Part shown: positions 58,670 through 61,146 of the stretch, piece by piece
Numbering within the stretch: the stretch's first letter is position 1
Layout: the number at the start of each line of letters is the position of its first letter
Assembly (NCBI GenBank): GCA_951406725.2
Contig: OX597827.1
Span: 28,768,001 to 28,832,000, forward strand
Length of the DNA stretch: 64,000 bases
Direction of reading: 5' to 3'
Source of the DNA: Octopus vulgaris
Lineage: Eukaryota
Notes under the pieces: model-generated
The model's database searches: none
Seen by the model: the letters and a program-made list of their open reading frames with translations, nothing else
What the model was told of the DNA's origin: nothing
Translations under genes and position numbers: made by a program

Positions 58670-59098
58670 GTCTCCCTGCGGCCATTAGGCACTACTTCAT
58701 AAGCCAGCCCTAAACTCAACTCGTCCTGTCGAAAGACCCTTGTCCTACGTCCTGGTTTTGTTTTGTTTTTTTATTTTTACCGTTATTGTTTTTACGTTTT
58801 TGTATTCTTATTGGCGTCACGTATTCTGTATTTTTGTTCGTGTACTTCGTTCGTTTTCCGTCCTCGTGTTGTATACATTCGAAGCTTTCTTCCTGGGGAT
58901 CTAATGCGCTTGGCTTAGATTTCCCTTGGCGGGCTGCCCAAATCGGAGCAATCTCAAGATTAATCAGCCGAAATTGCTAAGATGATCTGGTTCTTGACTG
59001 ATGACTGAGGGCTTCGAATGTCCCGTCCTGTGGTTCTTGTGTCGTCTCTTTGGTGTTTCATGTTCTTGTCCATGTCTGTAATTATTTTTACTGTTTAC
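58670..59098 (+). mobile_element. Non-coding pLTR-like element (family P) in (TA)n
   Basis: Diverged homolog at 60715-61146. Flanked by (TA)n. Confidence 0.75.
58875..59021 (+). ncRNA. Putative non-circularly permuted (pseudoknotted) hammerhead ribozyme, copy 1
   Basis: AGCAAUC|UCAAGA ... UCAGCC-GAAAUUGCU ... UCUUGA-CUGAUGA-CUGA, enclosed by ACAUUCGAAGC/GCUUCGAAUGU. Confidence 0.6.
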
Positions 59099-59147
59099 AT
59101 ATATATATATATATATATATATATATATATATATATATATATATATA

Positions 59148-60170
59148 AAGTTCAGCAACAATTTAGATTCAAATGAATATGGCACTTAATTTTGATGCGC
59201 CAGAGTTTTTTATGGTGTTACCCATAAAAATATGCGGAGTGATTATAATAAAAAAAATAAGCAACAAGAATGGATCCGGTAACTTAGTACAATTGTTTCA
59301 TACTACAACATTTAATTAAAAGCTGTAAATATTACAGCAGATTTAAGATGCCGAGTAATCTTCAGCTAATTTTATATAGGTTTTCGAATAATATAAAGTT
59401 TTCAAATCAATTAATAACATCTTAGGGATGGTAAATATACAGATAAAGATGTAAATATGAATCTTAGGAACATGAGGTCGTGCAGTTTAGATGTCAACTG
59501 ACCAAAATCTTGTTTACAACTGACTGCTGTAAGAAAATTTCTTTAGTTATATGGATTGGGGTAAGGGTAGGTAAAGAAGTCAAGTTAGTTGAAGAAAAGA
59601 GGAGGAAAATTCAGGAAATGTAAAAGAACAGGTTGTCACTAGAACAATCGGTCAATCTATCTCTGTGGAGAAAAAAAAATTTAGGTCGGTGTAGAAAGAT
59701 CATTAAATTATTATGAACATATAAGGTAGTAGGTCAGCTACTAACTGACCAAAAACCTACTTGCCACGGAGAGCCATCAGAATTTTTTTAGTAGGAATTT
59801 AGGTAAGGGGATGTGATAGAATACTGTAAAAGGGATTTATGTTAGTTACAGAAAAAAGGAAGAATTTAGAATACATAAAGGGAATTCAGATTGTCACTAG
59901 AACAAAAAGCCAGTTATTTTTATGTAGTGAGAAAAAACATCTAGATCAATGTCGAGAGGTCAATTAAATTCTTTTACAAAGGATAGGGGGACAAACCCAT
60001 CATCTAATTTATAGTAGGTATCATATTTTATAATTGGGGGAATAGTATTAAATATATAGATTTGGAGAAAGATCAAAATTCAAGATTACAGTGAGGTTAA
60101 TCTAGTCGACTATGAAAGTAAATTAAAGGTTAGTATAGTGTATCTCATATTATTATTATATTAAAAATGT
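59148..60170 (-). mobile_element. Probable PLE 3' UTR/pLTR with internal ~258-bp diverged tandem duplication
   Basis: Abuts (TA)n. HHR near its 3' end. ttgtcactagaacaa recurs at 59633 and 59891. Confidence 0.55.
59284..59369 (-). ncRNA. Type I hammerhead ribozyme
   Basis: UUAG-CUGAAGA-uUACU...AGUAu-GAAA-CAAUU-GUA-CUAA. Palindromic ACAAUUGU. Confidence 0.68.
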
Positions 60171-60629
60171 GTGTGTGCATACAGTGTTTAATTGTATTGA
60201 TTATTGAACATGATCAATATTTCGTCATTAACATCAGTCGTATTTATCAAATTGATTGTTTACTTCAGAGATAAATTACTTCGATAAAAAGAATATGAAT
60301 GGGAGAAGAAAGAAACGCGTTAGTAGCCAATAAATCAGCAGCACCTGTGCGGCGAACAATAATTATCGGTTCAACATCATCACTATCAGCAGTATTGTTA
60401 ACTTTTTCACATAAATGTAATCACTTACTTAACTAATGTATCACGTGATTTATATTTCCGGCCAATTTTGTTCTTTTATTTTCTGCATATGATACACGAA
60501 GGTACATGTGTGATTGTTTGCGTGTGTGTGTGTATGTGAGTGTGTGAATGCTTGTGTGTGTATATATATATATATATATATATATATATACTTCCATATA
60601 AGAACAAAAAGGTACGGGCGCAGCTATAT

Positions 60630-61146
60630 ATATGTACATGTAAAAAAACACAAACTGGGACAGGAACACAAAACATTTAGAAGGTACGGGCGACACATTT
60701 TTTTCTCTCTCTAGCCCTAAGGCTTTTTTCTAAAACCAGCTCAAAAATTTACTCGTCCTGTCGAAAAGACGCTTGTCTGTGACGTCCTGTTTTTGTTGTT
60801 ATTATTGTTATAATTATTGTTTTTACGTATTTTTGTGTTCTTGTTTGTGTTGTCATTGTTGTTTTTACGTATTTTTGTATTTTTATTCGTGTAGCATGGT
60901 CCGGTTTTCCGTCCTTGTTTTGTATACATTCGAGGCTTTCTTCCAAGGAATCTAAGGCGCTTGGCTTAGATTTTTCCCTTGGGGCTGGCCAGATCGGAGC
61001 GATCTCAAGATTAATCAGCCGAAATTGCGAAGATTATCCGGTTCTTGACTGAAGATTGAAGGCTTCGAATGTCCCGTCCGTATTTTTTGTATCGTCTTCC
61101 AAATGTTTTGCGTTCCTGTCCCAGTTTGTGTTTTTTTACATCTACA
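60630..61146 (+). mobile_element. Family P element, second copy, with an inverted 5' piece
   Basis: 60639-60678 is the reverse complement of 61101-61141. Homologous to 58690-59098. (TA)n flanks. Confidence 0.75.
60926..61072 (+). ncRNA. Putative non-circularly permuted hammerhead ribozyme, copy 2
   Basis: AGCGAUC|UCAAGA..UCAGCC-GAAAUUGC..UCUUGA-CUGAAGA-UUGA. Differences from copy 1 fall at N7 or give G-U wobbles. Confidence 0.6.

Follow-up and report, generated by a model that had tools for sequence, protein, structure and literature searches.

A hammerhead motif with a putatively split core in Penelope-like units of the Octopus vulgaris genome

Two hammerhead motifs found in the window (the whole stretch of Octopus vulgaris DNA analysed here, 64,000 nucleotides) very probably have a core that is split between A9 and G10.1 and consists of four blocks, stem II being formed by an upstream strand and the strand preceding GAAA. 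It is fairly likely that they represent a fourth hammerhead wiring, in which the catalytic strand is broken at A9/G10.1 and a four-way junction spans the gap. Such a wiring would be catalytically active in the animal and of ancient origin among Naiads (ctenophore, cnidarians and octopus, with nematodes keeping the unsplit CSG form); with thousands of copies, non-circular permutations would then be common in animal genomes.

Copies in the window and their repeat families

An earlier note on this DNA had placed all core parts of a hammerhead in two plus-strand stretches, 58875-59021 and 60926-61072, and both were found there in the sequence. Each copy contains CUGANGA, GAAA and the AUC triplet, a stem I of 6 bp and a stem III of 5-6 bp, arranged as S, G, C (S being the cleavage block, G the one with GAAA and C the one with CUGANGA). 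The features are as follows.

58670..59099, + strand: copy 1, a subfamily A1 unit truncated at its 5' end (positions 335-770 of the ~770-nt unit), between (TA)n tracts
58875..58889, + strand: 5' strand of outer helix O of copy 1, paired with 59007-59021 in the predicted fold (14-bp run in the descriptor)
58892..58929, + strand: hairpin H of copy 1 (predicted fold), ending 0-2 nt before G10.1
58932..58936, + strand: putative stem II 5' strand of copy 1 from its pairing, with G10.1 at 58932, displaced upstream of the cleavage block
58938..58944, + strand: predicted 5' strand of the I/II tie helix of copy 1, pairing with 58984-58990 with one mismatch
58948..58959, + strand: block S of copy 1, with stem III 5' strand, U16.1, C17 (predicted cut 3' of C17) and stem I 5' strand; in sequence GCAAU (58948-58952), C17 (58953) and UCAAGA (58954-58959)
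58965..58977, + strand: block G of copy 1, with stem II 3' strand, G12-A13-A14-A15.1 and stem III 3' strand; in sequence CAGCC (58965-58969) and GAAA-UUGC (58970-58977)
58984..59004, + strand: I/II tie helix 3' strand, stem I 3' strand (UCUUGA, 58992-58997) and CUGAUGA (C3-A9, 58998-59004) of copy 1, with no stem II strand after it
59007..59021, + strand: 3' strand of outer helix O of copy 1 (predicted fold and descriptor)
60595..60683, - strand: inverted piece of the unit 3' end and tail, ahead of copy 2 (60625-60683 by blastn, 88%; extension to ~60595 by eye)
60692..61160, + strand: copy 2, a 5'-truncated unit of subfamily A2 with (TA)n at its end
60926..61072, + strand: split-core hammerhead of copy 2 (G10.1 at 60983, C17 at 61004, G12 at 61021, C3 at 61049, A9 at 61055)

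The two copies, each from a different subfamily, were inserted separately and belong to families of thousands; the initial description as a "two-copy element" was abandoned. A single element with two terminal repeats was likewise ruled out by the different subfamilies of the two copies. Copy 1 corresponds to the 3' 436 nt of an A1 unit from another genomic locus (L007), with which it shares 97.7% identity, and the inverted piece ahead of copy 2 is a typical structure of Penelope-like insertions. No ORF of at least 60 aa was present between 59,186 and 60,432, and no reverse transcriptase (RT) match was obtained anywhere in the window.

The outer stem with its inner hairpin, as announced previously, was present in the predicted folds of both copies (z -4.0 and -3.4). 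In each copy C3 follows G10.1 at a distance of 66 nt, and the G10.1-C11.1 pair of copy 1 received a pair probability of 0.95. Under pseudoknot-free folding of copy 1, helices O, H and II formed and the cleavage block S was buried in a competing hairpin. The minus-strand reading gave a poorer fold lacking the core order and was rejected. As had been expected of standard hammerhead models, Rfam yielded no hammerhead match in 50,000-64,000 or in 58,800-59,090.

The genome searched comprised 2.8 Gb in 227 contigs. More than 2,000 first-look candidates were gathered for each window copy, and an exact pattern over blocks S, G and C gave 3,507 matches (control 0). The non-circular strand order was also borne out by a descriptor combining the core with stem I and stem III complementarity in S..G..C order. 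It had 150 matches in 506,956 bases, many of them near-identical or overlapping and therefore not independent, and none in each of five control sets (reversed, complemented and three shuffled). This descriptor led to an unrelated family, B, with 3,332 matches (control 0). A Naiad-type motif displayed 566 genome matches (control 6). Contigs of a coral type were retrieved with a short motif; the descriptor gave 12 hits in 119 such loci, and the remainder were decayed or due to chance.

Units occurred singly or in tandem, with a spacing of 624-855 nt in A1, A3 and A4 (767-779 nt for A1 units). Each non-coding tandem unit, ~620-860 nt in size, harbored one hammerhead motif, and the longest ATG frame was 45 aa in A1 and 91 aa in A2. 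The initial assignment to a (TA)n-inserting Penelope-like element (PLE) was upheld by the (TA)n target, the 5' truncation, the partial tandems, the inverted 5' piece and the 3' tail; tandems, inversions, tails and (TA)n targets are among the published Penelope-like hallmarks (PMC8557442).

Several other features were encountered in the window. Minimal type I hammerheads in canonical order are located at 43218-43262 and 61815-61859 (+) in another (TA)n-inserted family; they display a CUGUUGA variant, a stem I of 5 bp and a stem II of 4 bp. A PLE-like fragment (~58340-58657, +) directly precedes copy 1; it carries a decayed hammerhead-like core seen by eye at ~58530-58570, and its 3' end recurs near 14670-14700. 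Decayed transposase frames, which we take to be mariner-like, extend over ~56600-57817 (+) with matching ends at ~56600 and ~57790. A near-perfect inverted repeat with arms of ~65 bp (62832-62989) gave weak matches to microRNA models. Finally, a 184-bp dimeric repeat, probably of a SINE-like family, is found at 29240-29616 and 37816-38182; the two stretches are oppositely oriented, with 91% complementarity across 388 nt.

The strand of stem II and the architecture of the core

Covariation was examined in 13 hand-picked intact copies from four unrelated families (four A, one Naiad-type, six B and two coral-type), the position of G10.1 in these representatives being set by best pairing. Pairs 1-5 of the upstream stem II were each kept in 13/13 (65/65 cells); the first was always G10.1-C11.1, and pairs 2-5 displayed two to three Watson-Crick types. 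Stem I pairs 1-5 were kept in 64/65 cells and stem III pairs in 65/65, with several pair types per position in both stems. Covariation of the three stems, which had been proposed as a check, was recovered among these representatives, stem II adjoining the core with covariation only through the upstream strand. The wobble GCAAU/GCGAU had to be withdrawn as covariation, GCGAU being private to copy 2 among aligned A2 copies. Because G10.1 had been placed by best pairing, a swap control was run: the own upstream window provided 5-7 Watson-Crick pairs in 13/13 representatives and the strand of another family at most four in 112/112 combinations. Subfamily A4 had both sides of stem III changed (921 matches, control 0). 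In A3 both sides of stem I were changed at two pairs, the YUGA/UCAG pairing was lost and the upstream GGCUGG/CCAGCC formed a perfect 6 bp.

These data bear on a rival reading, an ordinary three-block type-SGC hammerhead taking stem II from the strand right after CUGANGA, either as YUGA/UCAG with CC bulged or, in family B, as GGGG after an inserted A. It would have the merit of matching a validated class (PMC10085705), and four register pairs were indeed available in both window copies (A1 and A2) and in A4. The strand after A9 in family B offered 3-4 possible pairs with one to two inserted nt, and family B alone was ambiguous. However, the YUGA/UCAG register left no pair in A3 and both coral-type copies and two in the Naiad-type, its pairs 1-4 being found in 9, 9, 10 and 4 of the 13 representatives. 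The in-register first pair with the strand after A9 failed in 13/13, and copy 1 reached at most 1 bp with the downstream strand when 0-2 inserted nt were allowed. At least four downstream pairs were counted in five of the 150 descriptor matches, against at least five upstream pairs in 129. In addition, the strand after A9 has a conserved partner of its own in helix O, located upstream, in family B as elsewhere. The three-block reading is therefore most improbable. From the stem II candidates of the earlier note, GGCUG/CAGCC was retained and YUGA/UCAG after CUGANGA dropped (0 pairs in A3 and coral-type), and its three intact blocks gave way to four. Neither a direct nor a 1-2-nt link from A9 to 10.1 exists in the window copies, which lack the uninterrupted I-CUGANGA-II block of the type-SGC definition.

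The four-block motif reads, from its 5' end, as helix O 5' strand, hairpin H, stem II 5' strand, tie-helix strand, block S, a short linker and block G, followed by the second tie-helix strand, the stem I strand with CUGANGA and the O 3' strand. Hairpin H occupies an equivalent place in families A, B, Naiad-type and coral-type. Helix O begins 0-2 nt past A9 and hairpin H stops 0-2 nt before G10.1; both links are of zero nt in family B, one A3 copy and Acropora Naiads. At the junction of the window copies 0-2 bases stay unpaired, the linkers being of 2 nt in the subfamily of copy 1 (A1). The tie helix comprises 8 bp in A3 and 7-10 bp in family B and coral-type, and its sequence varies on both sides in family B. 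Since the tie helix follows the upstream strand, it constitutes an independent mark of that strand as the 10.x strand.

According to the proposed model, the four blocks (stem II 5' strand, cleavage, GAAA and CUGANGA) would form a monomer with several pseudoknots, in which a four-way junction created by two added helices takes the place of the absent A9-G10.1 link. O and H would stack coaxially, their exits lying side by side at A9 and G10.1, and the short linker and the fifth helix may keep stems I and II parallel. The sources searched gave no example of a hammerhead that accommodates a helical junction at this link, and small insertions elsewhere in the core can impair cleavage (PMC3088659). 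Taken as a whole, a split-core monomer that folds and cuts after C17, the junction replacing the A9-G10.1 link, is the probable reading. If correct, a helical junction tolerated inside the core would provide a new insertion point for ribozyme engineering.

The same structure could also be assembled from consecutive units of a tandem, or within a circularised monomer: the CUGANGA block and the 3' strand of O would come from one unit and the remaining parts from the next, and single copies would then cut poorly. Units do occur as tandems, the blocks follow CSG in rotated order, which gives this pairing the same junction geometry, and canonical PLE hammerheads act as dimers (PMC4209133). On the other hand, ~150 nt suffice for every helix to close locally, stem III has 5-14 bp where dimer-acting forms have a weak one of 1-2 bp, and autonomous Naiads would have to span kilobases. 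Assembly across units is thus very unlikely. The need for dimers, considered in the earlier note, was dropped on similar grounds (stem III of 5-7 bp vs 1-2 bp in dimer-acting PLE hammerheads, PMC4209133).

Truncated copies and the predicted cleavage site

If the cut defines the start of the template RNA, 5'-truncated copies are expected to begin with nucleotide 1.1 or shortly downstream of it. Junction positions were read by eye among the matches listed, TA microhomology blurring them by 1-2 nt. Among these matches, the 27 distinct (TA)4 junctions comprised five at nucleotide 1.1, 18 at +2 to +11, none at -10 to 0 and four farther upstream, so that 23/27 were located at or after the cut. The ten bases before the cut offer equal AT microhomology, yet hold no junction among the matches listed. 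Reverse-strand junctions, each site being counted once among the matches listed, amounted to 128, 743 and 710 in 30-nt windows upstream of, spanning and downstream of the cut, respectively. In the unrelated family B, 7/96 distinct sites began upstream of the cut, the pattern used favouring junctions near its anchor.

This truncation step, present at the predicted cut in two unrelated families, indirectly suggests that the motif cuts in the animal, and cleavage 3' of C17 in vivo is considered quite probable. The cut position after C58953, previously predicted, is supported as well. Published SGC and CSG hammerheads with an unsplit core, which have the same short linker and I/II helix, were shown to cleave in vitro (PMC10085705). 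Cleavage would convert read-through or tandem transcripts into unit-length RNAs with nucleotide 1.1 as their 5' end; a Penelope-like RT acting in trans may then copy these into (TA)n tracts and run off at nucleotide 1.1. If so, the truncation step is a genome-recorded readout of the start of the transposition template, and the in vivo role of PLE hammerheads becomes directly testable.

Alternatively, the motif might be a conserved folded signal derived from a hammerhead and no longer self-cutting, the step resulting from RT stalling, a protein nuclease or a transcription start. The broken core link and the competing folds predicted would agree with this. Against it, the catalytic core positions were kept in 13/13 chosen copies while the stems changed freely: C3-U4-G5-A6, G8-A9, G12-A13-A14, A15.1-U16.1, G10.1-C11.1 and a non-G at 17 (the descriptor required the core, and what is measured is conservation between families), with N7 and H17 varying as in active hammerheads. 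The core helices would, moreover, already be unwound when the RT reaches nucleotide 1.1, and two unrelated families show the step where the structure predicts the cut. A signal that no longer cuts is accordingly very unlikely, and the self-cleaving split-core monomer is preferred.

Naiad elements and known hammerhead classes

Naiads were reported without canonical hammerheads, some of them (including Naiad_Ovul, Naiad_Bfor and Naiad-3_Chem) being flagged "HHR_core" or "HHR_half_core" (Craig et al. 2021, PMC8557442). The 3' ends of 37 Naiad consensus sequences in its supplement were read by eye. Eight displayed the split form (one ctenophore, five cnidarian and two octopus), six nematode Naiads displayed an unsplit CSG (Naiad-1/2/3_Nbra, Hcon, Hpol and Asuum, by eye) and 23 displayed neither within the stretch read. 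In the CSG of Ascaris (Asuum), A9 and G10.1 are separated by one additional U. Arthropod Naiads Ptep, Smim, Dst-1, Dst-2 and Dst-4 carry CCCC-CUGANGA cores, possibly further permutations, and bivalve Naiads CGi, Sglo and Olur share a different conserved G+C-rich structured 3' motif lacking the hammerhead core (PMC8557442 supplement). The split-core motif is likely to be the ribozyme thought absent from Naiad retroelements and, if so, explains their apparent lack of hammerheads.

One repeat family of the genome matched the published Naiad_Ovul consensus by eye. Naiad RT matches in the genome were fragments, and two remnant frames matched Pfam RVT_1 with scores below the cut-off. The Naiad-type motif was found on the same strand and downstream of RT remnants at 3/14 GIPMG loci and 8/20 more diverged RT regions. 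The window units encode no protein and have no detected sequence in common with the Naiad-type motif beyond the core. The autonomous element expected upstream of longer copies did not emerge in the loci examined: no RT followed by an A or B motif was detected in 14 GIPMG loci, 20 diverged RT regions and 20 GIY-YIG regions, and no RT match was found in 119 metagenome loci with flanks up to 2 kb.

An intact young PLE with a 781-aa frame was observed at L381:1945-4287 (G000:C16), together with 15 more 781-aa frames, among 148 GIY-YIG matches. Its RT is followed by a C-terminal GIY-YIG domain with a cysteine linker (Neptune/Nematis-like), a second ORF lies upstream, and a hammerhead-like motif of minimal size, carrying a U3/A8 change, was noticed by eye. 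Its 3' end, TTTTACA followed by a TA-rich tail, resembles the ends of A units; no blastn similarity to A or B units was detected. As a guess, this PLE is put forward as a candidate trans partner of the units.

Judged by strand and core content, the split form has the core and stems of a hammerhead and lacks the intact blocks of all six published permutations. Eckert et al. 2023 assumed hammerhead blocks to be uninterruptible (PMC10085705), an assumption of three blocks that would be overturned if the present reading is true. A literature search, with subscription journals and the supplements of Eckert et al. and of the bioRxiv preprint outside its scope, found no description of a split hammerhead core; PMC13725137 mentions "HHR variants containing additional helices", citing another paper. 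Published descriptor searches for type I hammerheads cannot find the split form (PMC4209133, bioRxiv 10.64898/2026.07.22.740005), the 2026 retrozyme preprint employing type I models only in the part drawn on here (bioRxiv 10.64898/2026.07.22.740005).

The closest relatives are non-circular permutations. Type-SGC (HRIMA-1 and variants; Eckert et al. 2023, PMC10085705) shares with the window copies the S, G, CUGANGA order, the full core, the short linker between stems I and II and an extra helix joining the other sides of these stems. Its CUGANGA block retains its stem II strand, whereas in the window copies this strand lies upstream and two helices are added (PMC10085705). SGC examples came from metatranscriptomes, and the part of that paper used here reports no SGC or CSG in the genome of a known organism (PMC10085705). 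If the present reading holds, non-circular permutations move from rare unassigned contigs to animal retroelements with thousands of copies.

Type-CSG is known from two metagenomic sequences, both of which cleave (PMC10085705). It has an equal cyclic order, the split form corresponding to CSG with its ends shifted to the A9/G10.1 link, but it keeps this link covalent where the split form does not. In terms of strand order, the split form is the CSG order of nematode Naiads re-opened inside the core. Naiad PLEs share (TA)n targets, tandem and inverted insertions and tails of 30-40 nt with the window units, and no fold is given for the flagged cores in the part of the Naiad paper considered (PMC8557442). 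Non-LTR retrozymes also consist of non-coding tandem units with one hammerhead each and are PLE-derived or PLE-mobilised (PMC4209133, bioRxiv 10.64898/2026.07.22.740005). The hammerheads of retrozymes and the minimal type I hammerheads of PLEs are circularly ordered, of type I and with a weak stem III, in contrast to the non-circular split order of the window units (PMC4209133, bioRxiv 10.64898/2026.07.22.740005).
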